From contig JACPKL010000001.1 of the NCBI GenBank assembly GCA_016187035.1, positions 78,607-142,606 of the forward strand: a DNA stretch of 64,000 nucleotides, given 5' to 3'. This document shows positions 22,529 to 56,519 of the stretch, piece after piece. The stretch is from Candidatus Daviesbacteria bacterium. GTDB lineage: Bacteria > Patescibacteriota > Microgenomatia > Daviesbacterales > UBA10151. The position numbers and the translations under genes are program-made. The notes under the pieces were generated by a model. It searched no databases. It was given only the letters and a program-made list of their open reading frames with translations, and was not told where the DNA came from. Numbering within the stretch: the first letter of the stretch is position 1; each line of letters begins with the position of its first letter.

Positions 22529-22955
22529 GGGGATGTATAGTTTCGACAGGATTGCTCTTTAAAAACTGCAAGTCGAAGAGGAAACATTATTCGTTAAATA
22601 TTGTTTCAAAACATACACGCCAAAAATACTGGCCGTGATGATGTAGTAAAAGCTGTAAAAAGCTTCGGTAGCGATGTTCTCGCCTTTATTGGTGGAACTC
22701 AAACCGCTGCATACGCAGTAGCTTAATCATCTACTTTAGTAACTCTTCTTTCTGACGAGAGTCTAAGGTATGTACAAAGTCAGGATGCACAATTTTACTT
22801 AATCCAGGTAAAATTGGACAAGCAATTTGGATTAAGCGTTAATCTTCCTGCTAACGGGTTACAAATTAACGCTCAAAAAAATACATTAGCTAAACTTGTA
22901 GAAGTTTTTTTGGAAATATTTCTGGACGGCGGTGCAAAACCGCCCATCTCCACCA
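22529..22955 (+). ncRNA. ssrA: tmRNA (SsrA)
   Basis: 5' ggggatgtatagtttcgacagg and 3' ggacggcggtgcaaaaccgcccatctccacca. The acceptor stem has a G3:U pair. The internal tag frame ends ...TAAYAVA-TAA (stop at 22724-22726). smpB lies adjacent. Confidence 0.9.
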
Positions 22956-26146: not shown

Positions 26147-27922
26147 TTACTTAAGTTCTACGTTAAATAAAGGTCCAACTATTTGAATATTTGCAGGGGC
26201 TCTTAGGTTAAAAAAGTTTTTAAATTCTGACCCGTTAAAAGTTTCTGAATGACCATCTCCTGAGATAGTCACTAAAGTAGACATACCGGTATTAAAATCT
26301 GCCAAAACAGAAACAATGGAGACCTGGTTAAACGGAGCGCCGCCCCTGTTTTTTAACTCCTCCTTAACTTTATCATGATTCCAGGTATCAGTACCTTCCG
26401 GATTAGGTTTATCTACCTGATATAGATGTTCTGACAAACCGCTGTCACGCTTGGTAAGCATAATCATATTGGCAATATCGGCAACTTCCTCAGGCTTTAA
26501 CCAGGCTGATTTAGCATATTCAGACCTGAAACCCTGGGCTGCATAAAAACAAGGAGAATCTTTATCATAAGCTTTACTAAATAGGTCAGCAAAAGAACCT
26601 ATATCTCCATTTGTATCTTTGGACCTTTTAGTAAAAGAGCGGTCACTCCAACCAACATCCTGGGCTGAAAAAGTATATCCCCCATCTGTTGATGAATACC
26701 AGGCAGTCACAGCTGACCCGCCTGAAATCATAGTCTTGCCTTCGGTAAGTTTGACAGCCTGCTCCCAATTACCTCCTTTATTGCCTCCTTTATAAACCTG
26801 GCAGGATTGGGTGGTACAAATCTCTTTTGAGCCATTGTTAGTATAAGATAGGGCATAAGAGCGGGCAGCAATAGCCTGGGCTTTTAAAGCCTCAATCGGC
26901 CAGGACCCAGGCATCTCATAAATACCTAAAAGATAAGTTTCCATGCTCATGGAACCAAAACCGGCAACAGAGATATTAATATTTGGTTTTTGCTCAAAAC
27001 CAAAGTTAGCAAAATATGCTCTTAAAATATCTTCATGATTTTGCCCTGCCTGGGCTCTGCCTAAGGCTCCATATTGATTCATCCCTACTCGATGAGGAAT
27101 ACCAAAAGTAAAAAAAACAAAAGCAGGCCTAAAGCCAGGATCCAATTTCCGATCATCGCTGCAAAATAAAGGGCCTGCCCCCAAAGAAGTAGGCAGATTT
27201 AAAGAGGCTTGTCTTTGAGCAATGATAGCTTGCTGTCTTGCCGAAAGCTGGGCAATTTGTTTAGATATATCAGCCTGGTAAGCTTTAGCTTTTTTAATCT
27301 CCCCTCCTAAAAAAGAGGCGTTTTTATCCACTTCTGCTTGTAAGCCGGCCAGCCTTGCTTTATCTTTCTCCAGTTTGTTTTTTTCACTGAGCAAATCAAC
27401 TACCTCTTGAGTAATTGAGGTAATGATTTGCTGGTCTTCTTTGGCAATATTTTGGCGGAAAGATAATTCTCTGAATAAATCTGCAGAATTAATTGAGGAA
27501 AGTATCACCAGCATTGGGTTGACAAGATATGAACGGATATAATATGCCCTGACTCTTTTTTCCAAAAGAGCATGCTGCAAGGCTAACTTATCTTCCCTTA
27601 AGTTTAGATCATTTTGTTTTTGCCCAATAGTTGCTGCTAAATGATCAATGCCAGCCTGGATTTGGGCAAGCTGCAGCTCTAAAGATTTTAACTGGCCTTC
27701 TAAAGGTTTTTTAGCCTTTTCTACCTGCTGCCATTCACTGCTTAGTTTATTGATCTGGTTTTTGATATCATCCAGCTCATCAGCATAAACAGGTAAAGGC
27801 AAATGTAAAATGTAAAGTGTAAATATCAAAATGACAATGCAAAGTTTAAAATGTCTTAAAAATTTTGAATTTTGATATGTATTTTTGATCTTTGAATTTT
27901 GGTTTTTGAATTTCCCTATCAT
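26147..27922 (-). CDS. SpoIID/LytB-domain peptidoglycan-remodelling protein with an N-terminal coiled coil
   Basis: 'EALKAQAIAARSYAL' and 'CTTQSCQVYKG' are SpoIID signatures. Long coiled-coil N-terminal half. The signal peptide is encoded by a low-complexity tract. Confidence 0.8.
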   Translation of the reverse strand: MIGKFKNQNSKIKNTYQNSKFLRHFKLCIVILIFTLYILHLPLPVYADELDDIKNQINKLSSEWQQVEKAKKPLEGQLKSLELQLAQIQAGIDHLAATIGQKQNDLNLREDKLALQHALLEKRVRAYYIRSYLVNPMLVILSSINSADLFRELSFRQNIAKEDQQIITSITQEVVDLLSEKNKLEKDKARLAGLQAEVDKNASFLGGEIKKAKAYQADISKQIAQLSARQQAIIAQRQASLNLPTSLGAGPLFCSDDRKLDPGFRPAFVFFTFGIPHRVGMNQYGALGRAQAGQNHEDILRAYFANFGFEQKPNINISVAGFGSMSMETYLLGIYEMPGSWPIEALKAQAIAARSYALSYTNNGSKEICTTQSCQVYKGGNKGGNWEQAVKLTEGKTMISGGSAVTAWYSSTDGGYTFSAQDVGWSDRSFTKRSKDTNGDIGSFADLFSKAYDKDSPCFYAAQGFRSEYAKSAWLKPEEVADIANMIMLTKRDSGLSEHLYQVDKPNPEGTDTWNHDKVKEELKNRGGAPFNQVSIVSVLADFNTGMSTLVTISGDGHSETFNGSEFKNFFNLRAPANIQIVGPLFNVELK

Positions 27923-27929
27923 GCCCTAG

Positions 27930-27974
27930 AATTCTACCATTTTTAAATCCTTTGTGCTAAGCTTTAGGTTGATG
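27930..27974 (+). promoter_or_regulatory. copy 1 (diverged) of the repeated leader/promoter-like motif 'aattctaccatttt..tcctttgtgctaagcttt'
   Basis: It contains TGcTAAGCT (an extended -10-like sequence) 9 nt upstream of the ATG at 27972. Related copies lie at 28879, 29365 and 29941. Confidence 0.4.
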
Positions 27975-28868
27975 ACTAAACTTAGCCTTTGGTTAATGCC
28001 AATTATTATTTTGATTTGGCTGTTATCCGCTCCTCAAGCTTACGCGAAAATAGTAGCTCCAACAGGAGATTTTTGTATATCCAATAAGATTAACGGCGCT
28101 TATATAGATTCATCCGGGGAAAACCTAATAGTAGAATATTCAGGGATTGACTCAACTCCAACTTTATTAAATATCCAGAAAATTGGTAATATTCAAGTCA
28201 ATGCCAGCTCTGCTCAAGCATTAAACCTGGGAGAAAATTGGGCTTTTAGGATTCAGGTTCCTAAACCATCCAGAGACCTGCTTAATTCTGAATTTAAATC
28301 TTCTACTAAAACTCAAGTTAGCATTGATTACTCTTCTGATCTGCAGAAACCAAACACCGATCTGGTGACTTGCAGATCCCAACGCTCAGATGTGCAGCTT
28401 GCCAGAATTACTCCACAACTTGAGCAAAAGGTAAATGAAGCTATCCAAAAGCAAGCCCAAGCCCCTGGAGCTGCAGCTTCTGCTGCTCCTCCTGTTGCCC
28501 ATCCCGCATCTCCTAATCCACCAGGTCTTAACCTGCAAAGCAAGCCCTGTGATCCAAATGACAAAGCAGCAGAGGCCAAGTTTGGGCCTTGTCCTGCAGG
28601 AATTGGGGAATTTGAGCAAATTTTTAGCAAAATTATTACTGTCATAGTGGGACTGGCCTTTGTGGTAATGTTAGTAATGTTAATTTGGGGAGGTATTAAA
28701 TACTTAACTTCAGGGGGAGAACCTAAAGCAATCCAATCTGCCCATTATACAGTGACCTGGGCTCTTTTGGGAGTATTATTTATGGCTGTTGCCTGGCTGA
28801 TTTTACAACTTATTAGAATCTTTACAGGCATTGATGTAACTATATTTAATATCAGAGTCCTTATTTAA
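27972..28868 (+). CDS. secreted domain fused to a C-terminal VirB2/TrbC-like T4SS pilin hairpin
   Basis: Signal peptide MTKLSLWLMPIIILIWLLSAPQAYA and a Pro/Ala-rich linker. The C-terminal 'VGLAFVVMLVMLIWGGIKYLTSGGEPKAIQSAHYTVTWALLGVLFMAVAWLILQL' matches the motif shared by the other five pilin-like ORFs. The start was moved from the GTG at 27954 to the ATG at 27972. Confidence 0.65.
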   Translation: MTKLSLWLMPIIILIWLLSAPQAYAKIVAPTGDFCISNKINGAYIDSSGENLIVEYSGIDSTPTLLNIQKIGNIQVNASSAQALNLGENWAFRIQVPKPSRDLLNSEFKSSTKTQVSIDYSSDLQKPNTDLVTCRSQRSDVQLARITPQLEQKVNEAIQKQAQAPGAAASAAPPVAHPASPNPPGLNLQSKPCDPNDKAAEAKFGPCPAGIGEFEQIFSKIITVIVGLAFVVMLVMLIWGGIKYLTSGGEPKAIQSAHYTVTWALLGVLFMAVAWLILQLIRIFTGIDVTIFNIRVLI

Positions 28869-28878
28869 TCTTTAAAAA

Positions 28879-28905
28879 TGTGCTAAGCTTTGGGTAATGT
28901 CCAAA
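28879..28905 (+). repeat. copy 2 of the 27-nt motif tgtgctaagctttgggtaATGtccaaa
   Basis: Identical to copy 4 over 27 nt. It is followed only by a 19-codon ORF (MSKIMSYFEVRRWKLEDRS*). Confidence 0.7.
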
Positions 28906-28972
28906 ATAATGTCTTATTTTGAGGTTAGACGCTGGAAACTAGAAGATAGATCTTGATGTTAGAAGATAGAAG

Positions 28973-29284
28973 TTAGAAGGTTTTCCAATTCCTTTGTAGA
29001 TTAGTTAACTTACCGCCTAATTGATTATACCTGGTAAGTAAACTATTGCAAAAATCCCTTTGCCAATAATCTAAATCTCTAGCAGTCTCAATATGAACTT
29101 CCATTTCGTTTGCCGAACCAATTGATGCATCCAGGTGATGTTTAAATTCTTTCTCAAATCTCCTCTTTGCCCAGCCTTCAGCAATATTTGCAGGACATGA
29201 TTTTGAAGCTCTACGCATCTGGGATACCAAATCGTTTCTCTCGTAAACAGGAAGTTTCTTGATAGATTGATGAATCATTATCAT
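28973..29284 (-). CDS. four-helix-bundle protein (23S rRNA intervening-sequence protein family)
   Basis: 'LVSQMRRASKSCPANIAEGWAKR' and 'GSANEMEVHIETARDLDY' are family hallmarks. It lacks the usual N-terminal helix, so it is possibly truncated. Confidence 0.8.
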   Translation of the reverse strand: MIMIHQSIKKLPVYERNDLVSQMRRASKSCPANIAEGWAKRRFEKEFKHHLDASIGSANEMEVHIETARDLDYWQRDFCNSLLTRYNQLGGKLTNLQRNWKTF

Positions 29285-29364
29285 TAATCTGATCTTATCA
29301 ATCTAGCTTCTATCTATTCAAGCTTCAAATTCTAGATTCAAATTTCTAATGTCCATCCTCAAAA

Positions 29365-29414
29365 AATTCTACCATTTTCCTATCCTTTGTGCTAAGCTTT
29401 GCTTAATGTCCAAA
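29365..29414 (+). repeat. copy 3 of the leader motif (long form)
   Basis: aattctaccattttcctatcctttgtgctaagctttgcttaATGtccaaa, followed by an 8-codon ORF that runs into the hicA 3' end. Confidence 0.7.
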
Positions 29415-29415
29415 G

Positions 29416-29646
29416 TTATTTCAGCAAGGTAACAAATTCTTCTTTAGTAATTCTCAAATCCTTTTTAATAATTTTTGTCAGTAAACCAATACCAATAGTA
29501 TCCGCAGGATGAACAGGTATAGTCACCCTTCTGCCATCTGAATGTATATAGACTGCATGACTACCGCTTTGATCCCGAAATTGAAAACCCAAATTTAATG
29601 CTACCTTTACTAAATCACGCGCTTTAACTTGGGGTAATTTTGACAT
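29416..29646 (-). CDS. hicA: HicA-family mRNA interferase toxin
   Basis: 'KARDLVKVALNLGFQFRDQSGSHAVY' is the YcfA/HicA fold signature. It directly abuts hicB. Confidence 0.85.
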   Translation of the reverse strand: MSKLPQVKARDLVKVALNLGFQFRDQSGSHAVYIHSDGRRVTIPVHPADTIGIGLLTKIIKKDLRITKEEFVTLLK

Positions 29647-29889
29647 TTAGATGGCAACTTCAAGAGACGTTAGACTAACAGGTTGCATTCTGGGAATTTC
29701 TTGCCTGTCTTCTTTGGAAATCCTTAAATTAAGTTTGATAGCATCACGGATATTGGTAATTGATTCCTCCAGCGTCTTCCCTTGAGTATGACAACCTTGT
29801 ATTTCAGGACAATCAGCCACAAAAAATCCCTCCTCATCTTTTTCTATGATAACCGGAAAGTTGTAGGTTTTAGTTTTAATCTTTTTCAT
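29647..29889 (-). CDS. hicB: HicB-family antitoxin
   Basis: 'YNFPVIIEKDEEGFFVADCPEIQGCHTQGKTLEE' (UPF0150/HicB N-domain). Start trimmed to the Met at 29889. Confidence 0.8.
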   Translation of the reverse strand: MKKIKTKTYNFPVIIEKDEEGFFVADCPEIQGCHTQGKTLEESITNIRDAIKLNLRISKEDRQEIPRMQPVSLTSLEVAI

Positions 29890-29940
29890 GAAACAATGAT
29901 ACCATAGACTAAAGTCTATGGCTAGACCCATGAATCTCTT

Positions 29941-29967
29941 TGTGCTAAGCTTTGGGTAATGTCCAAA
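29941..29967 (+). promoter_or_regulatory. copy 4 of the 27-nt motif, here driving or initiating the 29959 pilin-fusion gene
   Basis: tgtgctaagctttgggtaATGtccaaa. The extended -10-like TGcTAAGCT ends 7 nt before the ATG, which implies a very short leader or none. Confidence 0.4.
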
Positions 29968-31122: not shown

Positions 31123-31154
31123 GATTTACGATTTAAGAATTAAGATTTAAGAAT
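31123..31154. repeat. left 32-nt low-complexity inverted-repeat arm flanking the four-helix-bundle gene
   Basis: gatttacgatttaagaattaagatttaagaat matches the reverse complement of 31521-31552 at 26/32 positions. Confidence 0.55.
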
Positions 31155-31155
31155 A

Positions 31156-31542
31156 ATGAAAGATGGCAAAATACAGTCTTTTACAGATTTGAAAGTTTGG
31201 CAAGAAGGGCATATTCTAGTAGTTATGGTTTACAAAATAACTAAATATTTTCCTAAAGAAGAAACTTACTCGTTAACTGATCAGATGAGAAGATCAGCAT
31301 CTTCCATTACAGCAAATATTGCGGAAGGTTTTGGCAGACATTCTTACAAGGAAAAATTGCAGTTCTATTACCTTGCTCAAGGATCATTAACTGAACTAAA
31401 AAATTTTATACTTATCTCAAAAGATGTAGGATACCTTGATACCGAGGACTTCAACTCTTTAGTAGACCAGGCTAATCTAACTCATCAGATTCTACAGGGA
31501 TTTATTAAAAGCACAAAAACATTCGTAAATCATAAATCATGA
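31156..31542 (+). CDS. four-helix-bundle protein (23S rRNA intervening-sequence protein family)
   Basis: 'FTDLKVWQEGHILVVMVYKITKYFPKEETYSLTDQMRRSASSITANIAEGFGR...YLAQGSLTELKN' is a full-length family signature. Confidence 0.88.
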   Translation: MKDGKIQSFTDLKVWQEGHILVVMVYKITKYFPKEETYSLTDQMRRSASSITANIAEGFGRHSYKEKLQFYYLAQGSLTELKNFILISKDVGYLDTEDFNSLVDQANLTHQILQGFIKSTKTFVNHKS

Positions 31543-31552
31543 ATCTTAAATC
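31521..31552. repeat. right 32-nt inverted-repeat arm (overlaps the four-helix-bundle stop and the next pilin start)
   Basis: attcgtaaatcataaatcatgaatcttaaatc. It contains the TGA of the 31156 gene and the ATG of the 31539 gene. Confidence 0.55.
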
Positions 31553-32284: not shown

Positions 32285-33499
32285 TTACACCAGTTTCATA
32301 TTGTCTGGAATGTAGACTAATCTTTTCCCGGCAAAACCCAACCACTTTTTAAAAGTATCCAATTCAGGAGATGCAAAATTAAGAGTGTAATAAGTAGACC
32401 TGCCTGCTTCCCTTTTTTTCAGAATATCCTGGTCTACTGCTCTTTGCAGGTATGTCACCAGAGTTTGACGGGCTATCTTTCCTCTAGTTGCTTTAGCCAG
32501 ATTCTTAAACTGTATTTCACTTCTTTTGATAAATGGTTTTAGGACAACAGGGATTTGACCTTCTAATTCTAGTTCTAGTCTCCCTATAAACTCATTCCGT
32601 TTTGTCTCAAGACTGGTTTTCACCACACCAATTATTGAGAGCACTAATGCCTCAAGAACAAAATTTACAAAATGATTTAGGTTTTTGCGCTCCAGTGAAT
32701 ACAACAAATACTTATAATATCTGGCCTTTTGTTTATGATAGTAGTACGAAGTACTGTAAAGATTTTTACCATTTATGCCTAAGCTTCTTAAAAGCACATG
32801 CTCCAGACTGCGGCAAACTCTTTTATTCCCATTATTAAAAGCATGCAAACCATAAAGCGCGGTATGAAAGATGGCTACCCCGTCAACTGTCTGATGCTTT
32901 TGTAACCAGTCAATTAACTCCTTTACCCCACTTTCTATTTCTTCATATGGCGCTGGAGTGTAACTGCCTACTCTAATCATATTATTATCCCGCCACTTCC
33001 CTGACCTATAGACTGTAAAATCAGATAAATACTTTTGAAATAGATCTAGTCCTTGGGTTAAATTTTGATGCAGCTTTTTTATTTTCTCCGGGGTTAACTC
33101 TGCTATCTTGATGGGTTGCTGATTTAAATTGCGGAAAGTTTTAGCAATGTTGAAAAATTCTAACTGATCATAGTCTTTTTGGGTTAACTTTACCCGCGCT
33201 TTTAGTAATTTAGCAACAAAATCATAATCTGGATCAGAGATAAGCAAATTATAAACATCCTGGGCTTCTGGAAGCGTTAAGTGCGAATCCTCTGCTTTAG
33301 AAATGGCAAAGGAAGCAAGCAGTTCATTTTTACTGATCAAGTTTCTTTCAATATCAGGATTTAAGAACACCTGCTCATATTCAGACAGTTCCCTGTCAAG
33401 CGATAAAATCTCCTTATTGGTAAATGGTTGTATTTTTGGAATCCAGACAAATTGTGACAAAAAGCCTTTAGAAAAGGGTCTTAAAATAAGCGTATTCAT
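32285..33499 (-). CDS. Fic/DOC-family protein with a C-terminal winged-helix-like domain
   Basis: The Fic motif variant 'HAFNNGNKRVCRSLEH' compares with consensus HxFx[DE]GNGRxxR, with Lys replacing the second Gly. Confidence 0.8.
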   Translation of the reverse strand: MNTLILRPFSKGFLSQFVWIPKIQPFTNKEILSLDRELSEYEQVFLNPDIERNLISKNELLASFAISKAEDSHLTLPEAQDVYNLLISDPDYDFVAKLLKARVKLTQKDYDQLEFFNIAKTFRNLNQQPIKIAELTPEKIKKLHQNLTQGLDLFQKYLSDFTVYRSGKWRDNNMIRVGSYTPAPYEEIESGVKELIDWLQKHQTVDGVAIFHTALYGLHAFNNGNKRVCRSLEHVLLRSLGINGKNLYSTSYYYHKQKARYYKYLLYSLERKNLNHFVNFVLEALVLSIIGVVKTSLETKRNEFIGRLELELEGQIPVVLKPFIKRSEIQFKNLAKATRGKIARQTLVTYLQRAVDQDILKKREAGRSTYYTLNFASPELDTFKKWLGFAGKRLVYIPDNMKLV

Positions 33500-33600
33500 G
33501 GTTATATTTTAGTCTAAAATCAGTCTAATGATTAGTCTAATAATTAGTCCAGATTAAGTCTAACAGAGATGTTTATAGAAGTCAAATAATGTGTTTGGAA

Positions 33601-33637
33601 GATTGCCACACCCCGCTGGGGCGGGGTTCGCAATGAC
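33601..33637. repeat. third copy of the GTCATTSCGA-core-GTGGNAATC element, terminator-like
   Basis: The minus strand reads gtcattgcga-accccgccccagcggggt-gtggcaatc. The core is a 7-bp GC hairpin that starts 2 nt after the stop of the 33639 gene. Confidence 0.55.
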
Positions 33638-33638
33638 A

Positions 33639-35819
33639 TTACTCTGGCTGTATATCATAGAATTCTGAAGCGCTGAGAGCTAAGTAAGGATTTATTTTAG
33701 TTTTATAAGTAAACCCCGCATCATGCAACATCCGTTTGATATCTTCAACCTGGGATCCCTGACATGCAACTTCTCTTAGTGTAATCCCTCTTATAAATCT
33801 TGCTAACAAGTCCATCCCGCTATCACTCTCAGGATCAACCCCCAAAGGAATAAGATAACCTCTGTTTCTCTCTGCTACAGTTTGAACAAAGGCAACAGCA
33901 GCTTGTGCCAAATTGCGGTTTTCTGCATCACCCGGGCTCTTTACTTCTAATCTTGCGACAAGCTCATCAGGTGTAGTGTTTAGACCAACCCATTCTGACG
34001 TTGCCACTTTTATAAACGCTTCTCTCCTTCTCTCTTCTTCTCTACGAGCTGCCTCCTTATCGTCTGATGTGGGTTGGGGTGCTGAAGCAGCAGGCTGCTT
34101 CTGAACATTCCTGATGAATACAAGATTGTTACCGGGAACTAAACTTGTTTCAAATGTATATCCAGCATTCCGTAGCATCTCTTGAAGATCTTTATCGCCT
34201 TGGGAACCAGCCACACATCCACTTCCTCTCCCCCATAAAATCGTATTTATAAAAGCTACCATCAGTTTTTGTTCATCACTGTTTTTAGAATCAATGTTCT
34301 GAAAAGAAGGGTCATACTTTATCATCTCAGTTCGCAAGAAATTAATAGCAGATTGTATATAATTTCGAGTTGTTTGATCATTTACCCAAGGCTTGGGAAG
34401 ACGCTCGAGTTGTTTCATAAGGGTATCAACAGTGGATGTCGGAGTAATTTGTATATACATTTCCACAAGTTCTCTGTAAGCGCCTTCGTTGGGCTGAACT
34501 TCAGGAACAGAAGGAACTTCAGCAGATGGAGGAGGTGAAGAAGCTTCTGCAGCTGAAGATACTGGCTGAGGTGTTACAACAGCAGGGCTGGCTGGAGAAC
34601 TGCTTTGTGAAGCAACAGGCTGCTCCTGACGGATATTATAGAACTCTGTTGCATCCGCTATTCCAGGCCTTGTTTTATACTGATAATTTAATGCTTGCAA
34701 TGTTGCTTGGATATCTGCAGCTTTGATCAAACCACTCGTAATTATTCCTGTTACAGTTCCTCGTATAACTTCTGCTATTAACGTTCTTGCAATACTGCTT
34801 CCCTGCTCAATGTCAGCAGGTACATGCCGGGCAATCCTGTTTGCTTCATTTCGAACAAAAGCAAGAGCAGCTTGGGCACGTTGTTGACTTTCTGGATTTC
34901 CTGACCATTTTCCATGTAATATCAGTTGATGTACAAGATAAGGAATCGTCGTTTCCGGACTAATCGATATACCCAATTTCATGTATTCTTCGCAAGCTTC
35001 TTTTCCTTGTTGCTGCGCTTCTAGTTCTCTGCGTCGCACAGTTAATCGCTGTATTTCAGCTTGATCTTCAACTTGCGTACCTGGTTGCAATGCTACTGTA
35101 GCTTCGTCTGCTGATACTACAGCATGTTCAATTCTGGCAGGCTCTAAAGCCTCTCCTTCACCTGTTGGGACCGTAGGTTCTGGCGTAGCTGCTGCTTGCG
35201 CCTCTGCAGGTGTTCTCTTAGCTTTCCATGTCCCAGGTTTCCACCAAACTCTTCTAGAAACATGTTCTGGTTGTGATTCTTCCGCTGTAGCTTCGTCTGC
35301 TGATACTACAGCATGTTCAACTCCGGCAGGTTTTGAAGTTTTAGGTTTAGCAGCTTCTTTAGAGCTACCACCACGCCTACCCAATAAGTAGGCCCCCCCT
35401 ATCGCAGCTGTTACTGCTGCTCCACCTTGAAGATAAGGATCTTGAAACCACTCTCTCCTGTTATTCCTAGACCCAGCAGAACCTGAAGAACCGGAAGAAA
35501 CCCTACCTGATTCTGTACCTCCTGACCCAGCTGATGTACCTACTGCAGGCCTAGGTGTAGCTGTTGGAGTAGGAGGATTTGCGGTCTGAAAAGCTTTTAT
35601 TTTCTCTTGTCTAACCCTTTCACTTTCTGCATCTATTTGCTCTTGAGTTCTGGTCGGAGCTGGTGGAGGAGTTTGAGCTGCTGCTGTTTCCAGTGTAACT
35701 ACACCAGCTACTGCTCCACCAACTACAGCAGCTGCTTTTGCTGTATGCTTTAGAAAATCTCTTCTACCCACTTTTCCTATTTCTGCAACTGGTACTTGTC
35801 GACCTTCTGAAGCTTCCAT
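33639..35819 (-). CDS. Tat-signal secreted protein with three ~125-aa internal repeats (orphan)
   Basis: It carries the twin-arginine motif 'GRRDFLKHTAKAAAVVGGAVAG...AAAQ' and Pro/Ala/Ser-rich linkers. Three homologous modules end ...NYQYKTRPG.., ...GYTFETSLVPG.. and ...GFTYKTKINP... GC content is visibly higher than in the flanks. Confidence 0.7.
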   Translation of the reverse strand: MEASEGRQVPVAEIGKVGRRDFLKHTAKAAAVVGGAVAGVVTLETAAAQTPPPAPTRTQEQIDAESERVRQEKIKAFQTANPPTPTATPRPAVGTSAGSGGTESGRVSSGSSGSAGSRNNRREWFQDPYLQGGAAVTAAIGGAYLLGRRGGSSKEAAKPKTSKPAGVEHAVVSADEATAEESQPEHVSRRVWWKPGTWKAKRTPAEAQAAATPEPTVPTGEGEALEPARIEHAVVSADEATVALQPGTQVEDQAEIQRLTVRRRELEAQQQGKEACEEYMKLGISISPETTIPYLVHQLILHGKWSGNPESQQRAQAALAFVRNEANRIARHVPADIEQGSSIARTLIAEVIRGTVTGIITSGLIKAADIQATLQALNYQYKTRPGIADATEFYNIRQEQPVASQSSSPASPAVVTPQPVSSAAEASSPPPSAEVPSVPEVQPNEGAYRELVEMYIQITPTSTVDTLMKQLERLPKPWVNDQTTRNYIQSAINFLRTEMIKYDPSFQNIDSKNSDEQKLMVAFINTILWGRGSGCVAGSQGDKDLQEMLRNAGYTFETSLVPGNNLVFIRNVQKQPAASAPQPTSDDKEAARREEERRREAFIKVATSEWVGLNTTPDELVARLEVKSPGDAENRNLAQAAVAFVQTVAERNRGYLIPLGVDPESDSGMDLLARFIRGITLREVACQGSQVEDIKRMLHDAGFTYKTKINPYLALSASEFYDIQPE

Positions 35820-35885: not shown

Positions 35886-36542
35886 ATGAATAAATATTAT
35901 AAAAATAATAAAAAAATTCTGATTTTCCTTTTAATCAGTATTATATTTTTAAAAAGTGCTTCTCGTGTATCAGCTTTAACAGTTGGTAATCCGTGCAGCA
36001 TAGACAATGATCAGTGTGATAAATCAAGCAATTTATATTGTCAACCCAATCCTGTAGCTGGAGCCACCATAACGCATTACTGCCAGCAGGCCTTAACAAT
36101 AGGACAAGAATGTAATCCCCAACGCGATGTATGTGACAAAAAAGCTGGTTTATCCTGTGATCCTAATCCTGTGGCTGGAGCTACCATAAAAAATTATTGT
36201 CAGCAAAATGCTATTGGCAGTATTTTTGGCAAAATTAAGCCTCCTGATGCTTTAAAAGGATTGATAGCAAAAGATCCCACAGGAGCCGGGGGGATTAGCC
36301 TATTTTTATCTAATTTAATAGCTTTAATATATTCCATAGCATTTGTGGTGTTAATCTTTATGCTGATTTGGGGAGCTTTTGACTGGATGACTTCAGGAGG
36401 AGATAAAGAAAAACTAGCCAAAGCCCAACAGAGAATTATCAATGCTTTTATTGGCATTTTGCTTTTTGCTGTTGCTTTTGCCATTATCCAGGTCTTAGGG
36501 GTATTTACCGGCTTCAAGTTTTTTGAGGGTCAGAAACCATAG
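35886..36542 (+). CDS. tandem Cys-rich modules fused to a VirB2/TrbC-like pilin hairpin
   Basis: It has a signal peptide and two copies of 'C..D.CDK...L.C.PNPVAGATI..YCQQ'. The hairpin is 'FVVLIFMLIWGAFDWMTSGGDKEKLAKAQQRIINAFIGILLFAVAFAIIQVLG'. Confidence 0.7.
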   Translation: MNKYYKNNKKILIFLLISIIFLKSASRVSALTVGNPCSIDNDQCDKSSNLYCQPNPVAGATITHYCQQALTIGQECNPQRDVCDKKAGLSCDPNPVAGATIKNYCQQNAIGSIFGKIKPPDALKGLIAKDPTGAGGISLFLSNLIALIYSIAFVVLIFMLIWGAFDWMTSGGDKEKLAKAQQRIINAFIGILLFAVAFAIIQVLGVFTGFKFFEGQKP

Positions 36543-42973: not shown

Positions 42974-43387
42974 CTAGAGAATTTTCATTCCCCGTAGAAT
43001 AACTAAAAATGCTTCTGGTTTAACAATCCTAGTATCCTCCCATTTTGCTCCAGGCAGTTCTAGTAGATCTTTATCCCTGGTAATAAGATAGTCTGCTTTT
43101 GAACTTTCTACCAACTCTAGAAGAAAATTATCTTCAGGGTCACGGCATGCAGTGATCCTTATATTTGGACTTACCATTATACCTTTTCCCAAAATCGCCA
43201 TTACCTTGATACTTATTGCCTCATCCACCTGAAAATCATCTAGTTTTTTATCAACCTCTTCCACTAAGCTTGAAGAGATAAAAAGTTGTAATTTATTAGC
43301 AATAACAAGATCAACAACTTGTTCTATCATCCCACCGAATAATGAGGCTGAGAGGATAGCGTTTGTATCAAGCACAATCTTAATCAT
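42974..43387 (-). CDS. PIN-domain toxin
   Basis: 'IVLDTNAILSA' and 'ADYLITRDKD' fit the TIGR00305-type PIN pattern. Confidence 0.8.
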   Translation of the reverse strand: MIKIVLDTNAILSASLFGGMIEQVVDLVIANKLQLFISSSLVEEVDKKLDDFQVDEAISIKVMAILGKGIMVSPNIRITACRDPEDNFLLELVESSKADYLITRDKDLLELPGAKWEDTRIVKPEAFLVILRGMKIL

Positions 43388-43685
43388 GTTTATGATCGTT
43401 TAAGATAAGATCATAAAACTGTTGTTCAGTAATCTTTTTGGGATCTAAGCCTTTTTCTCTCATCAATCTGTTACCGATTTTTTTACCCTCTTTTTTCAAA
43501 TATCCCCAAGCTTGTCTAATGCGTTCTTCCTTATCTGCAATGTTTTCCTGTTCCTGGATATATTTTTCTGAAAGTGCTAATTTAATAATATCTGCTTCAG
43601 ATAACAACTGATACTTACTCCTAAGGAAGGACAAAACTTTATTGACATCTGAAGTTCGAGCTAATCTTATTTGCGGTTGTGACAT
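43380..43685 (-). CDS. putative cognate antitoxin
   Basis: 101-aa ORF overlapping the PIN gene by 8 nt. No recognised DNA-binding motif. Confidence 0.5.
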   Translation of the reverse strand: MSQPQIRLARTSDVNKVLSFLRSKYQLLSEADIIKLALSEKYIQEQENIADKEERIRQAWGYLKKEGKKIGNRLMREKGLDPKKITEQQFYDLILNDHKHD

Positions 43686-46359: not shown

Positions 46360-46487
46360 ATTGCTCCTGACACGGGATATAAATTGTGGTCGGTCTCCTG
46401 ACTATACAGTTGCGGCACAGTTCCCGAATTACACGGGATTCCCTTTATTGTCTCTTATCCAAACTTGGATTGAGACACCACAGACCA
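46360..46487 (-). promoter_or_regulatory. possible structured ~125-nt 5' leader
   Basis: On the minus strand, the closing helix tgtggt-gtctc / gagac(cg)accaca encloses two hairpins: atcca-agtt-tggat and tcccg-tgtaatt-cggga. A second 'tcccgtgt' sits next to the SD (caggagcaatATG). Confidence 0.3.
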
Positions 46488-46516
46488 ATAATAGCAAACT
46501 CAAAATCAAATGTCAA
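46488..46516 (-). promoter_or_regulatory. sigma-70-type promoter TTGACA-17-TATTAT
   Basis: On the minus strand, the -35 is at 46511-46516 and the -10 at 46488-46493, with a 17-nt spacer. It is embedded in the 'ctcaaaatcaaatgtcaaagctcaaaa' low-complexity tract. Confidence 0.45.
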
Positions 46517-46614: not shown

Positions 46615-47625
46615 ATGGAACCACATGCAATCCCGCAAAATGTCACCTCTTTCCAATTTCATTTAGTTGGGGATATGACTTTAAGACAATTTCTTTATTT
46701 GGCTACCGGAGCTGGTATCGCTTATTTTATTTTTATCTTCCTTTCACCGGTATATCCTTTGATCGCCTGGCCTCTAATTTTAATCTCAGCCTCATTAGGA
46801 GCTGCTTTTGCTTTTATGCCTATAGCTTCCCGTCCTTTGGATTACTGGCTGGGAGCATTTTTAAAAGCTATATACCAGCCTACCAAAAGGGTTTGGCAGA
46901 AAAACAATAAGGATTATAAAAACGATCCTTTATTTAACAGCAGATTAGTGACTTATCTTTCCAGCTTAGAACTAGCAAGCCAACAAATCAACAAACCCGC
47001 CGGCATTCCCGCGTCTCTTCCTACAACTGCAGAATTGGGCAAAACAGTAGATCTTGCCCGTCAAGCTCAAAATTTACAACTTAAAATTCTGCAGACCGAA
47101 AGAACCTTAAACCAAATTAAATCTAAATCTCAACAAGCAGCTGTTATCCCAACCGACTATAGCAATCAAGTCAATAAAATAATCGCTGATTTGCAAACTT
47201 TAGTCTCTCAAGCTTCTCAGGTCAGAAACCAGCTTGATACAGTTACCAAAGCCGAACCCATGAAAACAGCGCCTGCTGTGAAAGCCATTCCTGCAGCTGA
47301 GCTAAAAGAACAAGTCAAAGTAGTTACTCCTAGCAAAATCAAACAAACCCAAATGGCATTAACCACTTTCCCGAATGTAATAAATGGCGTAGTTACAGAT
47401 AATACAGGAAACTACCTTGAAGGAGGTATCGCTGTTATTTATGATAAGGAAGGCTTGCCAGTCAGAGCCTTAAAAACTAATAAGCTTGGCCAGTTTACCG
47501 GCTCAACCCCTTTGCCGAATGGCTCATACCGTTTAACTTTGGAAAAGGATAACCTGACCTTTGACACCTTACAAATAGAGTTAAATGGAGAAGTATTACC
47601 GCCCTTGTTGATAAAGGCTAAATGA
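46615..47625 (+). CDS. PrgI/VirB3-like membrane protein with a C-terminal carboxypeptidase-regulatory-like beta domain
   Basis: The N-terminus 'FQFHLVGDMTLRQFLYLATGAGIAYFIFIF...LILISASLGAAFAFMP..RPLDYWL' is the PrgI-family two-TM pattern. The C-terminus is 'INGVVTDNTGNYLEGGIAVIYDKEG...GSYRLTLEKDNL'. Confidence 0.6.
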   Translation: MEPHAIPQNVTSFQFHLVGDMTLRQFLYLATGAGIAYFIFIFLSPVYPLIAWPLILISASLGAAFAFMPIASRPLDYWLGAFLKAIYQPTKRVWQKNNKDYKNDPLFNSRLVTYLSSLELASQQINKPAGIPASLPTTAELGKTVDLARQAQNLQLKILQTERTLNQIKSKSQQAAVIPTDYSNQVNKIIADLQTLVSQASQVRNQLDTVTKAEPMKTAPAVKAIPAAELKEQVKVVTPSKIKQTQMALTTFPNVINGVVTDNTGNYLEGGIAVIYDKEGLPVRALKTNKLGQFTGSTPLPNGSYRLTLEKDNLTFDTLQIELNGEVLPPLLIKAK

Positions 47626-53036: not shown

Positions 53037-53507
53037 ATGGGAATGCTAAATACTAAAACTAAGTTAATTATATTGTTTATATCTTTAGCTGTAGGGCTTT
53101 TTATCTCTTTCAGGCCGAAAATTGAGAATGAACTTAACAAATCAGCTGTGCAAAACAGTCAAAGCGAGAAAACCCAAAATCAGCAGGATGAACCCCCTAG
53201 GATTGTCTCTACCAAGCCCGACTCTCTTGAGGAGAGTATTATTCCAGCAGATGAGGTAATTGAGATAAACTTTAATAGGCCTTTGGAAAATGTTGGAGAA
53301 TTCAAGGTCAGAATCGAACCTAAAACAGATTATAAATTAGAGTTGTCAGGAGACAGGAAAGTTGGCAGAATTATACCTGTTAAGCCTTATGAGCTGGGAA
53401 CAGCCTATACTTTATATATCGGCAGTGAAACTAAATTTGATGGGATAGGAAGGTGGGGGCAGGAGAAAACATATCATTTCAGGACTATCAAATACAGAGG
53501 AATTTAG
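53037..53507 (+). CDS. membrane-anchored Ig-like domain protein
   Basis: N-terminal TM. 'IVSTKPDSLEESIIPADEVIEINFNRPLE' shows the same Ig-like opening as the previous ORF. Confidence 0.5.
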   Translation: MGMLNTKTKLIILFISLAVGLFISFRPKIENELNKSAVQNSQSEKTQNQQDEPPRIVSTKPDSLEESIIPADEVIEINFNRPLENVGEFKVRIEPKTDYKLELSGDRKVGRIIPVKPYELGTAYTLYIGSETKFDGIGRWGQEKTYHFRTIKYRGI

Positions 53508-54601
53508 GTCAGTCTTACCGGCATCACAACGTATTCCAGCCCTTCGACTCCAATCGGCTTAATCAAACAAGCAGAAAGCGCTCCAGAAAATTCAATAGCT
53601 ACCTGTGAGACTGGAACATTAGAGATAGCATCCATCAGGAATTTGGTGTTAAAAGCAATTTTAAGCTCTTCGCCTTCTACTTCTCCTTCTATTTCATTTT
53701 CCTGTTTACCTATTTCTGCAGAGGATTCCAGGATTAAACTGCCTGTTTTAGTTGTTATGGCTACAATATTGGCTTCATTCCTAACAAACACTGCAGCTAA
53801 TTTAATAGCTTTTAAAAGAGTCTCCTTTTCTATCAAAGCCCTACAGACAATTTTTTGAGGCATGATTCTTTCCCAAGCAGGAAACTGACCTTCTATCAAT
53901 CTCGATGAAATAGTATTTAAACCCAGACTGAAGATAATCTGGTTTTGATTTTCCGAGGCAGCCATTTTGACTTCATCTACATCAGTCTCTGATATAATCT
54001 TCAGAACCTCTTCAAAAGTCCTTCTTGGTATCAGACTTCTGAAATGAGTGCCGCCTTCAGGTATGGATACTTGTCTGTGGGCCAACCTAAACCCGTCAGT
54101 AGACACAAAGTCTAGTTTATTTTCTTTAGATTCTGTGAGTATACCTGTCAGAACCGGTCTGCCCTCATCTACGGCTGCAGCAAAAAGCACTGTTTGAGAG
54201 GATAAAAACGCTTCTTTGGGAAAACTGATATTAAAGTTCTCGACAAGCGGGATAGCAGGGAATTCTACAGCCGGAATACCATTAACAGAGGCCCTGAACT
54301 TACCGGAGCTAATTATCAGCGCCTCTCCTTCAGATTCTAAGGTAACTTGACTTTGCCCTAAGCCAGAGATTAAGTCGACCAAGGTCTTGGCAGGGACGGT
54401 AATCTCCCCGTCTGCCCCGTCTGTAATAGGGATGGATTTGACCACCCCTATCTCAAGATTGGTGGCTGCTATTTTCAACCTCTTGTCAGTGATGGATAAT
54501 AGGATATTATCTAAAACAGGCAAAGTTGAGCGGACTCCAACCGAGCGGGAGACAGACTGGAGGGAAGGCAGCAGATCTTGTTGTAAAATGGTGAATTTCA
54601 T
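53504..54601 (-). CDS. dnaN: DNA polymerase III beta sliding clamp
   Basis: 365 aa. 'MKFTILQQDLLPSLQSVSRSV..RSTLPVLDNILL' is a canonical DnaN N-terminus, and it ends 'YVVMPVRL'. Confidence 0.95.
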   Translation of the reverse strand: MKFTILQQDLLPSLQSVSRSVGVRSTLPVLDNILLSITDKRLKIAATNLEIGVVKSIPITDGADGEITVPAKTLVDLISGLGQSQVTLESEGEALIISSGKFRASVNGIPAVEFPAIPLVENFNISFPKEAFLSSQTVLFAAAVDEGRPVLTGILTESKENKLDFVSTDGFRLAHRQVSIPEGGTHFRSLIPRRTFEEVLKIISETDVDEVKMAASENQNQIIFSLGLNTISSRLIEGQFPAWERIMPQKIVCRALIEKETLLKAIKLAAVFVRNEANIVAITTKTGSLILESSAEIGKQENEIEGEVEGEELKIAFNTKFLMDAISNVPVSQVAIEFSGALSACLIKPIGVEGLEYVVMPVRLT

Positions 54602-55047: not shown

Positions 55048-55216
55048 AACTTCTGTAGATTATACAACAAATTAATAGAATAGTAGTCATATTAATATAC
55101 TCTGTGGATATGTTGATAAGCAATTCTTCAGATTCTATTTTCGGTGTAATTTTGGGTTGATGAGTAGTGAATACCTGGTGGATAAGTTGTGGAAAAGCAG
55201 CTTCATTTGTGGATAA
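55040..55216. promoter_or_regulatory. candidate oriC: five co-oriented DnaA boxes plus an AT-rich stretch
   Basis: The boxes (reverse complement of TTATCCACA) are at 55040-48 (TTTTCCACA, opposite orientation), 55103-11, 55177-85, 55188-96 and 55208-16 (perfect). The AT-rich stretch at 55060-55100 is ttatacaacaaattaatagaatagtagtcatattaatatac. Confidence 0.6.
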
Positions 55217-56519
55217 GCCTACTCCTGATCTCAACCATGACTTTCTGGACATCCCGATCCATTAAAACTAATTGTTTAATCTTGTCCCTGCCGTGCATTA
55301 CCGTAGTATGGTCTCTCCCGCCAAGCATCCCGCCTATTTTTTCAACAGTCAAACCAACCTCTTCACTTAAAAGATACATGGCAATGTGTCTTGGCAGAAC
55401 CAGCTCTTTTTGTCTTCTTGGGCCGGTCAGGTCTTTAAGAGGCAGATCAAAATAGTCGCAAATCCCAGACAGAATCTTTTTCGGATCCTTTAAAGCAGCG
55501 GGAGAAGGAGATTGATGTAGGAGCGAACCGATGTTTTCCATAGTTGGTTGTAAATTTTTAAGTTTCAATACCTGGATAATTCTCATAAGCTCACCCTCAA
55601 GTTCCCTGATGTTGGAATTTAATGAGGCAGCCAGGGTTTCCATCACGTCTTCCGGCAGGCTCTCCCCTCTTTCCAGGCACTTAGCCTGTAAGATTGCCAC
55701 CCTGGTGTCAAAGTCAGGGGGCTGGATATCAAGCATTAACCCTCCTGCAAAACGTGATTTAAGACGGTCTTCTAACTTTTCGATCTCATGTGGAGAACGG
55801 TCTGATGTGAGAATCATCTGGGAATTTTTACTCTGAAGCTCATTAAAGGTGTGGAAGAATTCATCTTGAGTGCCCTCTCTGCCGGAGAAAAATTGGATAT
55901 CATCAATCAAAAGTATATCAGCCTTCCTATATTTACTTCTTAGATCAGCCATCTTACGAGTCTGAATTGCACCCACATAATCATTCATAAAAGTTTCTGA
56001 AGGACAGTAGATGATTTTTAAGCGGGCGTTTTTTGCCTGGAGGGTATTACCAATGCCGATCATCAGGTGGGTTTTGCCTACTCCTGTTCCACCATATAAA
56101 AATAAAGGATTATAAGAGGTGCCGGGATTTTGGACTACGGCCTGGGCAGCAGCATAAGCAACATTATTAGAAGGCCCAACCACAAAGTTTTCCAGGGTAT
56201 ACTTGGGGTTTAAAAAAGATTTAGTTTGAACAGGCTGGAAAAAATCATTTTCCTCTTCATGCTGAATTTGCTCTGTTTCTTTGATGATAAATTCAATGCT
56301 TACTTTTTTATCCAACAGCTTCTCAAAGGTTTCCCTTATCAAAGGTAAATATTTCTGGCTAAGCGTTTCTTTAACAAAGGCATTGGGAGTGGAAAGAATA
56401 ACAGTATTCTCAGTTAATCCTTTTAGGGAAGTTTTCAAAAACCAACTCTTAAAGTTAGCAGAACTTAGGTTGGGTTTGATGGTTTCTAAAAATTTATGCC
56501 AAAGCCTTAAATTATCCAT
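55203..56519 (-). CDS. dnaA: chromosomal replication initiator protein
   Basis: Walker A 'LFLYGGTGVGKTHL', 'LLIDDIQFF', and the domain IV motif 'LVLPRHIAMYL...VGGMLGGRDHTTVMH'. Confidence 0.97.
   Translation of the reverse strand: MDNLRLWHKFLETIKPNLSSANFKSWFLKTSLKGLTENTVILSTPNAFVKETLSQKYLPLIRETFEKLLDKKVSIEFIIKETEQIQHEEENDFFQPVQTKSFLNPKYTLENFVVGPSNNVAYAAAQAVVQNPGTSYNPLFLYGGTGVGKTHLMIGIGNTLQAKNARLKIIYCPSETFMNDYVGAIQTRKMADLRSKYRKADILLIDDIQFFSGREGTQDEFFHTFNELQSKNSQMILTSDRSPHEIEKLEDRLKSRFAGGLMLDIQPPDFDTRVAILQAKCLERGESLPEDVMETLAASLNSNIRELEGELMRIIQVLKLKNLQPTMENIGSLLHQSPSPAALKDPKKILSGICDYFDLPLKDLTGPRRQKELVLPRHIAMYLLSEEVGLTVEKIGGMLGGRDHTTVMHGRDKIKQLVLMDRDVQKVMVEIRSRLIHK

Follow-up and report, generated by a model that had tools for sequence, protein, structure and literature searches.

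A 64,000-nucleotide (nt) stretch of a Candidatus Daviesbacteria contig (JACPKL010000001.1, positions 78,607 to 142,606; hereafter the window) carries four copies of a short sequence module between a gene for a SpoIID-like protein and a gene for a VirB2-like pilin, with small gene cassettes between the copies. Comparison with related loci, 69 in total from GTDB genomes and metagenomes, indicates that this intergenic space is a lineage-wide hotspot for cassettes in Candidatus Daviesbacteria, precise to the nucleotide. As read from its sequence, the repeated module is a predicted promoter with an extended -10 element (TGcTAAGCT) joined to the leaderless start (ATG TCC AAA) of the first VirB2-like pilin gene. 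To our knowledge, Patescibacteria have tiny genomes and few recognised mobile elements, and their gain of genes is poorly understood. The locus described here is a reproducible hotspot at which at least ten families of toxin-antitoxin or defence type come and go across many species, bracketed by copies of the module.

Four copies of the module in the window

A scan of the window for the module core (TGTGCTAAGCT/TGTGCTAAGCTT) gave exactly four matches, all on the plus strand, starting at 27953, 28879, 29388 and 29941. The copies, the short open reading frames (ORFs) that two of them open (stubs) and the genes around them are listed here; 4HB stands for four-helix bundle and T4SS for type IV secretion system.

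26147 to 27922, minus strand: SpoIID-like gene (PF08486, E=6.7e-19), the conserved left border of the hotspot
27930 to 27980, plus strand: module copy 1, with a SpoIID-type left part, core at 27953-27963, an 8-nt spacer and ATG at 27972; opens pilin 1
27972 to 28868, plus strand: pilin 1, a 298-amino-acid (aa) fusion with a C-terminal T4SS_pilin domain (PF18895, E=2e-7)
28879 to 28905, plus strand: module copy 2, 27 nt identical to copy 4, without the -35 part
28897 to 28956, plus strand: stub of copy 2, 19 codons, running into a 4HB unit
29365 to 29414, plus strand: module copy 3, with a SpoIID-type left part, core at 29388-29398 and ATG at 29406
29406 to 29432, plus strand: stub of copy 3, 8 codons, overlapping the end of hicA
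29416 to 29889, minus strand: hicBA cassette (hicA 29416-29646, PF07927, E=3e-17; hicB 29647-29889, PF15919, E=9e-10)
29923 to 29967, plus strand: module copy 4, complete, with -35 TAGACC at 29923-29928, 17 nt, TG-extended -10 TAAGCT at 29946-29951, 7 nt, ATG at 29959 and TCC AAA
29959 to 31113, plus strand: pilin 2, a 384-aa fusion with a T4SS_pilin domain (PF18895), the conserved right border

An initial annotation of this DNA, made from the letters alone, had reported an identical 27-mer in copies 2 and 4. Indeed, TGTGCTAAGCTTTGGGTAATGTCCAAA at 28879-28905 and 29941-29967 agrees at 27 of 27 positions; the identity spans exactly these 27 nt, the sequence on either side is unrelated, and shuffled windows gave no match to the 27-mer. 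Copy 3 (29388-29414) had been credited with three changes, but we counted two mismatches to copies 2 and 4, both in the spacer. The diverged copy suspected near 27953 is present as a match to the core, after which the sequence diverges. Copies 1 and 3 have 36 nt in common at 92% identity (27930-27965 and 29365-29400). The shared upstream segment noticed in these two copies is thus real, but its identity had to be corrected: the segment, AATTCTACCATTTT, is the reverse complement of TGGTAGAAT, a predicted promoter on the minus strand.

The four copies lead into ORFs of very different length, as had been proposed: the ATG at 27972 of copy 1 opens 298 codons and the ATG at 29959 of copy 4 opens 384 codons, both encoding PF18895 proteins, and copies 2 and 3 open only the stubs of 19 codons (28897-28956) and 8 codons (29406-29432). 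Pfam matches to PF05635, HicA and HicB likewise agree with a minus-strand four-helix-bundle gene and hicBA between the copies. The adjacent genes for the HicA toxin and the HicB antitoxin make up a type II toxin-antitoxin system, HicAB (Pfam). Exact-protein look-ups recovered the identical arrangement in independent Logan assemblies from six samples, which rules out misassembly; the SpoIID protein had no record in these look-ups.

The module as a predicted promoter with a leaderless start

All four copies in the window contain the extended -10 element TG-c-TAAGCT, 7 nt from the ATG (8 nt in copy 1) and with no Shine-Dalgarno sequence in between. The -35-like TAGACC, 17 nt before TAAGCT, is found in copy 4 only and is missing from copies 1-3; many relatives have TAGACC or TAGCCA at the equivalent position. 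The family-wide consensus from 60 distinct copies is cTAGACCctaa-N9-TGTGCTAAGCT-N5-TAATGTCCAAA, in which the two 11-nt blocks (TGTGcTAAGCT and TAATGTCCAA) are at least 90% conserved and the 5-nt spacer between them is variable.

The putative promoter activity of the module is in line with the starts of other genes. The pattern TGnTAnnnT, 5-8 nt, ATG has 27 matches in the window, 14 of which open an ORF of 60 codons or more; among all ATGs the share is 18.9% (binomial P=1.2e-4). This enrichment at gene starts speaks for the earlier suggestion that an extended -10-like TGcTAAGCT only 7 nt before the ATG would give near-leaderless mRNAs. An extended -10 element followed by ATG also precedes the SpoIID gene (TGGTAGAAT, 8 nt), the first 4HB gene (TGATAAGAT, 7 nt before the ATG at 29284) and hicB (TGGTATCAT, 6 nt), and another pilin gene in the relatives has the same promoter architecture. 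Together these data indicate, at the sequence level, that leaderless promoters of the extended -10 type are common in the Daviesbacteria lineage.

Two of the predicted minus-strand promoters lie directly against module copies:

27931 to 27960, minus strand: SpoIID promoter, with -35 TTAGCA, 18 nt, TG-extended -10 TAGAAT and 8 nt to the ATG at 27922
29896 to 29924, minus strand: hicB promoter, with TAGCCA, 17 nt, TG-extended TATCAT and 6 nt to the ATG at 29889

The promoter scan showed that the -35 hexamer of the SpoIID promoter, TTAGCA, is the reverse complement of TGCTAA in the motif core. The left part of copy 3 contains a similar minus-strand promoter (TTAGCA-18-TAGAAT) that faces the 4HB gene. 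Because promoter elements of opposite strands overlap in this way, the unit would be a compact back-to-back divergent promoter. We also considered an RNA element at this position and rejected it: a stem CTTTGG/CCAAAG around the ATG is lost in relatives, where the spacer varies, and the region has no Rfam match.

The module is confined to one locus

A SpoIID-based scan of GTDB genomes gave 43 loci, mostly from Candidatus Daviesbacteria (Microgenomates), with SpoIID identities to the window of up to 77%, so that the species of the window is not among them. Synteny is kept in these loci: SpoIID shares its strand with two unknown genes, and the opposite strand carries the pilin 2 orthologue with short pilins after it. 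Full modules were present in the SpoIID-pilin interval only, and the related loci, about 0.9 Mb in all, had none outside it. Scanning metagenomes with TRTGSTAAGCTNNNNNTAATGTCCAA yielded 26 contigs. All 18 with informative flanks represent the SpoIID-pilin locus, and the remaining eight carry only cassette families that are also found in the arrays. Across the 69 related loci, then, the module is restricted to this locus and always has the orientation of the pilin. A HicAB pair in one Levybacteria genome, which lies outside this locus, lacks the module.

The related genomes were thus searched and the content between copies tabulated, as the initial annotation had recommended, with copies at this locus only and cassettes between them. 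The same annotation had considered that the motif might prove to be a common promoter at unrelated genes; no such use was seen in the window, the GTDB loci or the metagenomes. A general promoter or regulon motif, next to cassettes by coincidence, would explain why the module is built like the other leaderless promoters of the genome. Against this, the TGTG-prefixed TAAGCT with its ATGTCCAAA start stands nowhere else in the 64 kb or in the 0.9 Mb of related loci, and the 26 metagenome matches include no other context. We regard a mere coincidence as scarcely credible. A phage origin was rejected as well: the module pattern had no match in viral contigs, and a looser pattern gave four viral matches that are attributable to chance and have no homologous genes.

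Cassette arrays differ by whole units

The interval is empty in 12 loci, which consist of SpoIID, a single module and the pilin, and at least 25 loci hold cassettes between SpoIID and pilin. Two to four full modules, all in the pilin direction, are present in 17 loci. The last module always opens an intact pilin (360-515 aa), which in every related locus is the orthologue of pilin 2; the earlier modules open stubs of 4-28 codons. By Pfam, the cassettes comprise HicAB, VapBC, YafQ/ParE pairs, BrnTA, Phd/PIN_3, DUF433/DUF5615, AbiEii, DUF4143 ATPases and 4HB units. They occur in either orientation, and the hicB, 4HB, YafQ and Phd cassettes have promoters of their own. The same families recur in varying order between loci, and their distribution is patchy with respect to SpoIID similarity: HicAB is present in loci at 48-58% SpoIID identity to the window and absent from those at 77%. 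Arrays differ from one locus to another by whole units of module plus cassette. The contrast between the 12 empty single-module loci and the 17 with multiplied modules, together with the sharp 3' edge at ATGTCCAAA, supports the earlier proposal that small cassettes were inserted repeatedly at one site with duplication of the module.

Many of the older internal modules have been disabled: two loci (L014 and L033 in our numbering) show a clean deletion of the -10 core, the ATG is changed to ATA in two others (L012, L068), and in L055 a GC-rich hairpin is inserted between the -10 element and the ATG. These changes may reflect counter-selection of stray promoters.

Two further features of the modules are recorded here. 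A hairpin variant, TGTGCTAAGCCACAAyTAg-loop-cTArTTGTGGTAAGCT, makes up 13 of the 60 distinct copies and is absent from the window; it separates the -35 element from the functional -10 element and occurs in L003, L006, L007, L012, L017, L026, L038, L049, L062 and L066. Possible explanations are an operator, insertion of a small palindrome or a feature used in recombination. Many modules (L006, L021, L036 and others) have two to four tandem CCCTAAA-like heptamers (e.g., aaaccctaatccctagaccctaaaccctaa) 20-50 nt upstream.

Pilin 1 itself sits inside the hotspot: none of the relatives has a pilin-1-like gene adjoining SpoIID. The arrays of the relatives end, on the far side, in a short pilin similar to the C-terminus of pilin 1; no such gene stands there in the window. 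Four Logan contigs of this strain retrieved with pilin 1 (L001, L072-L074) stop at one point, about 27866, in the low-complexity 5' end of SpoIID (KFKNQNSKIKNTYQNSKF), which suggests strain variation or a repeat that breaks assemblies.

Cassette junctions are flush with the module

Similarity between copies of the same genome stops 3-15 nt (median 8) past the A of the ATG (37 pairs from 17 loci), and the repeat typically has its sharp end 8-12 nt past this A. The cassettes begin at this edge. The stop codon of hicA lies 1-3 nt past ATGTCCAAA in five loci (2 nt in the window), the YafQ and Phd/PIN_3 cassettes of three or four genomes, which differ in their place in the array, have the same junction directly after CCAAAAT, and minus-strand stop codons of cassettes are found 9-25 nt past the ATG. 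At their opposite ends, cassettes reach up to the -35 element or extend into it. In the window, for example, 2 nt are common to the -35 elements of hicB and copy 4.

The position of the 3' edge bears on the possibility that the stubs are relics of decayed pilin paralogues, two of which had their bodies replaced by other genes. Tandem pilin arrays are present here and, according to PMC12102498, in Patescibacteria generally, and the additional gene pilin 1 starts at a diverged copy of the module. However, random decay would leave remnants of variable length, and the stubs retain no trace of a signal peptide. Because similarity to the pilin is confined to the first 15 nt past the ATG in all of the within-genome pairs, this explanation is excluded for practical purposes, and we consider it highly improbable.

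Unrelated cassette families also end flush against a shared element of about 25 nt, TAGACCCTAA, immediately 5' of the 27-mer. An attachment (att)-like site of about 50 nt would account for this arrangement better than duplication of a 27-nt target. Target duplication would mean that an integrase or transposase makes staggered cuts at the edges of the 27-nt site and that gap repair duplicates it. Several observations are as this model would have them, namely the exact 27-nt identity of copies 2 and 4 between unrelated flanks, the sharp 3' edge of the repeat, near-identical copies in L064 and L027, and copies that are significantly more alike within than between genomes (edit distance 3.0 vs 5.25; 0 of 10000 permutations). 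Yet many arrays, for example L005, L059 and L063, contain clearly dissimilar copies. Moreover, TAGACCCTAA would have to be a conserved end of the inserted element, and the elements have no conserved left end or terminal inverted repeat; nor did the neighbourhoods examined contain a Cas1-like or transposase gene. Target duplication is therefore, in our estimate, quite unlikely.

In the window, two copies are chimeric. In copy 3 the resident SpoIID-type left part is joined to a variant spacer, and in copy 4 a cassette-type -35 element precedes the resident right part, as expected from a crossover inside TGTGCTAAGCTT.

A proposed crossover site within the predicted promoter

We favour the reading that the module itself is the attachment or crossover site for cassette recombination, and hold it to be probable though far from secure, because at least ten unrelated families have flush junctions, because TAGACCCTAA is shared and because copies 3 and 4 are chimeric. 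The recombination step and its enzyme are proposed from the sequence comparison as follows. A cassette that bears a module, as a circle or as other incoming DNA, would recombine with the resident module, by means of a recombinase encoded elsewhere or by short-homology recombination. The cassette would be placed immediately 3' of ATGTCCAAA, and a complete module would be rebuilt in front of the pilin gene. The older module would stay upstream and open a short stub. Direct repeats, tandem growth, reshuffling and clean loss of cassettes would be the outcome. Several orders of the pilin 1, 4HB and HicAB insertions fit the chimerism of the copies and the loci L021 and L035.

Alternatively, the locus might have no dedicated mechanism: one ancient duplication of the module would have been followed by homologous recombination (unequal crossing-over, gene conversion and transformation between strains), and the conserved module would be merely a portable patch of homology. 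The module is the sole highly conserved non-coding stretch in a variable region, its homogenisation within genomes fits gene conversion, and differences by whole module-plus-cassette units are what such exchange would produce. But homologous exchange shuffles existing units and gives no account of how new families enter at the same nucleotide, and it is hard to reconcile with at least ten unrelated families that lie flush against the module on both sides. We judge this alternative unlikely.

Several points weigh against a crossover site. The function of the module as a promoter and start would, on sequence grounds, fully explain its conservation, which demands no role in recombination. The higher similarity of copies within genomes is equally expected from target duplication or gene conversion. 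In several cassette-bearing loci there is one module only, or the modules are decayed. Known core sites of tyrosine recombinases have a dyad symmetry that the module lacks, and Pfam found no recombinase family among the conserved neighbours and cassettes scanned, a set that covered only part of the window and not every ORF per locus. Exact-protein look-ups in the six Logan samples gave neither an empty/occupied polymorphism in one population nor a circular junction.

If the module is nevertheless a true recombination site, it would follow a new attachment-site logic, in which integration at the first codons is harmless as promoter and start are rebuilt, and it would be a candidate safe-harbour sequence for genetic tools in these organisms. 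The recombination mechanism at the locus is possibly new. Our broadest proposal, which we put forward tentatively, is a new cassette-capture system in Daviesbacteria and perhaps other Patescibacteria, with the pilin promoter and leaderless start as its att site. In such a system, a recombinase encoded elsewhere would insert cassettes precisely after ATGTCCAAA and the promoter would be regenerated each time. Toxin-antitoxin and defence cassettes would accumulate, be shuffled and exit cleanly, making the locus an independently evolved analogue of the integron without an attC-like structure.

The 4HB units resemble intervening sequences of 23S rRNA

Two 4HB units, which resemble the intervening sequences (IVSs) of 23S rRNA genes, lie in the pilin region.

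28917 to 29364, minus strand: first IVS-like unit, 448 nt, with inverted repeats 28917-28964 and 29317-29364 around a PF05635 gene (28973-29284)
31123 to 31552, plus strand: second IVS-like unit, 430 nt, with a PF05635 gene (31156-31542, E=1.1e-37), between pilin 2 and pilin 3

Both are bounded by imperfect inverted repeats, and RNA folds pair the termini as a long stem. The initial annotation was right to treat the four-helix-bundle gene as an inserted cassette, and we refine this to an IVS-like unit flanked by inverted repeats. Read from the ATG at 29356 on the minus strand, the frame of the first 4HB gene has 127 codons with in-frame stops at codons 13 and 18 (within 29285-29356 of the window), and the annotated ORF of 103 aa is, as judged from this frame, an N-terminally truncated, decaying gene. 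A unit homologous to the first one lies between the same flanks in L021. The second unit is present in some relatives and absent from others at the same junction of pilin 2 and pilin 3.

In rRNA genes, IVSs are inserted in helix 25 or 45 of the 23S rRNA. The window has no rRNA match. Like the 23S rRNA IVSs (PMC4990558), the two units have a PF05635 ORF, a length of 430-448 nt, stem-forming terminal inverted repeats, short tandem repeats before the ORF and a decaying ORF; unlike them, they are not in an rRNA gene but in intergenic positions of the pilin array.

Genomic setting

The window is chromosomal, with tRNAs, tmRNA, rpoD, dnaG, dnaA (55203-56519) and dnaN (53504-54601). The GC skew turns at about 50-56 kb, which together with dnaA and dnaN places the replication origin about 27 kb from the array. 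T4SS genes of Patescibacteria have been reported close to the origin, and a PrgI-family (T4SS) gene at 46615-47625 of the window agrees with this position.

Downstream of the hotspot, pilin 2 is followed by the second 4HB gene, two short pilins (to 32278) and a Fic gene on the minus strand, with more pilins at 35886 and 36599. The Fic gene and a gene for a 726-aa protein without a Pfam match (32285-35819, both on the minus strand) separate the fourth pilin from the one after it and so interrupt the array. The two pilins are direct neighbours in some relatives, and others have a minus-strand ORF of 247 aa between them; this junction is a second variable site of the array. Elsewhere in the window, a PIN_3 gene with a small upstream partner (42974-43685, minus strand) lies beside a gene for a 1303-aa protein, outside the hotspot, and is probably another toxin-antitoxin pair. 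A cobalamin riboswitch (46371-46497, minus strand) precedes a gene for a 464-aa protein without a Pfam match, and a tmRNA gene is located at 22529-22955 (plus strand).

Comparison with known systems

VirB2-like pilin arrays are known in Patescibacteria and reported to be essential in a cultured relative (PMC12102498); text searches of that paper gave no mention of a promoter or of SpoIID. Our searches of the literature on leaderless promoters of the candidate phyla radiation (CPR), on Daviesbacteria and on arrays of cassettes or repeats in Patescibacteria gave no description of repeat-bracketed cassettes, and those for integrons in Patescibacteria found none described.

We compared the locus with four kinds of system. 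The repeats of CRISPR arrays (clustered regularly interspaced short palindromic repeats) and the duplications made by casposons may resemble it, in that a fixed site of about 27 nt would be duplicated at one polar position with each insertion. In contrast to these, the inserts here are whole genes and there is additional conserved sequence 5' of the 27-mer. Pfam scans of the window proteins, and of ten proteins encoded by cassettes of related loci, gave no Cas1-family match, with no whole genome searched.

Modules mobilised by Xer recombinases, such as integrative mobile elements exploiting Xer (IMEX) at dif and the pdif modules of Acinetobacter plasmids, are also small, often encode toxin-antitoxin systems, use a site of about 28 bp and depend on a host recombinase encoded elsewhere. 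The dif site has 28 bp, with partly palindromic arms of 11 bp and a 6-bp centre, and the 11 + 5 + 11 layout of the module, with conserved arms and a variable centre, resembles it. The arms of the module match at only 4 of 11 positions in reverse complement and show no dyad symmetry, and the locus is about 27 kb from dnaA/oriC and not at the terminus; we therefore rejected a dif/Xer site. In addition, the copies here are all direct repeats, unlike pdif sites, whose orientation alternates.

Islands that integrate at att sites in the 3' end of tRNA genes or the 5' end of dusA share with the locus that direct repeats copy an end of the target gene and that an intact gene is regenerated. The regenerated part here would be the pilin promoter and the first three codons, and repeated use of the site leads to tandem arrays as it does in such islands. 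The islands differ in being kilobase-sized and in carrying their own integrase. The units here measure 0.45-1.3 kb, and the cassettes examined contained no integrase but only toxin-antitoxin, 4HB, AbiEii or ATPase genes.

In how it works, the locus comes closest to an integron, sedentary chromosomal integrons included, or a cluster of attC sites lacking an integron integrase (CALIN). Like these, it is a tandem array of cassettes of one or two genes at one repeated site with a promoter beside it, it abounds in toxin-antitoxin genes, and its content and order vary. Integron cassettes are mostly promoterless and co-oriented behind the promoter Pc, and each has attC, an imperfect palindrome, at its 3' end. 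The locus nevertheless falls outside both classes: we found no intI among the neighbours and cassettes scanned and no attC-like palindrome, and the cassettes lie in both orientations and have promoters of their own. Most distinctly, the repeat of this array, unlike that of an integron, is the predicted promoter and start codon of a resident gene.

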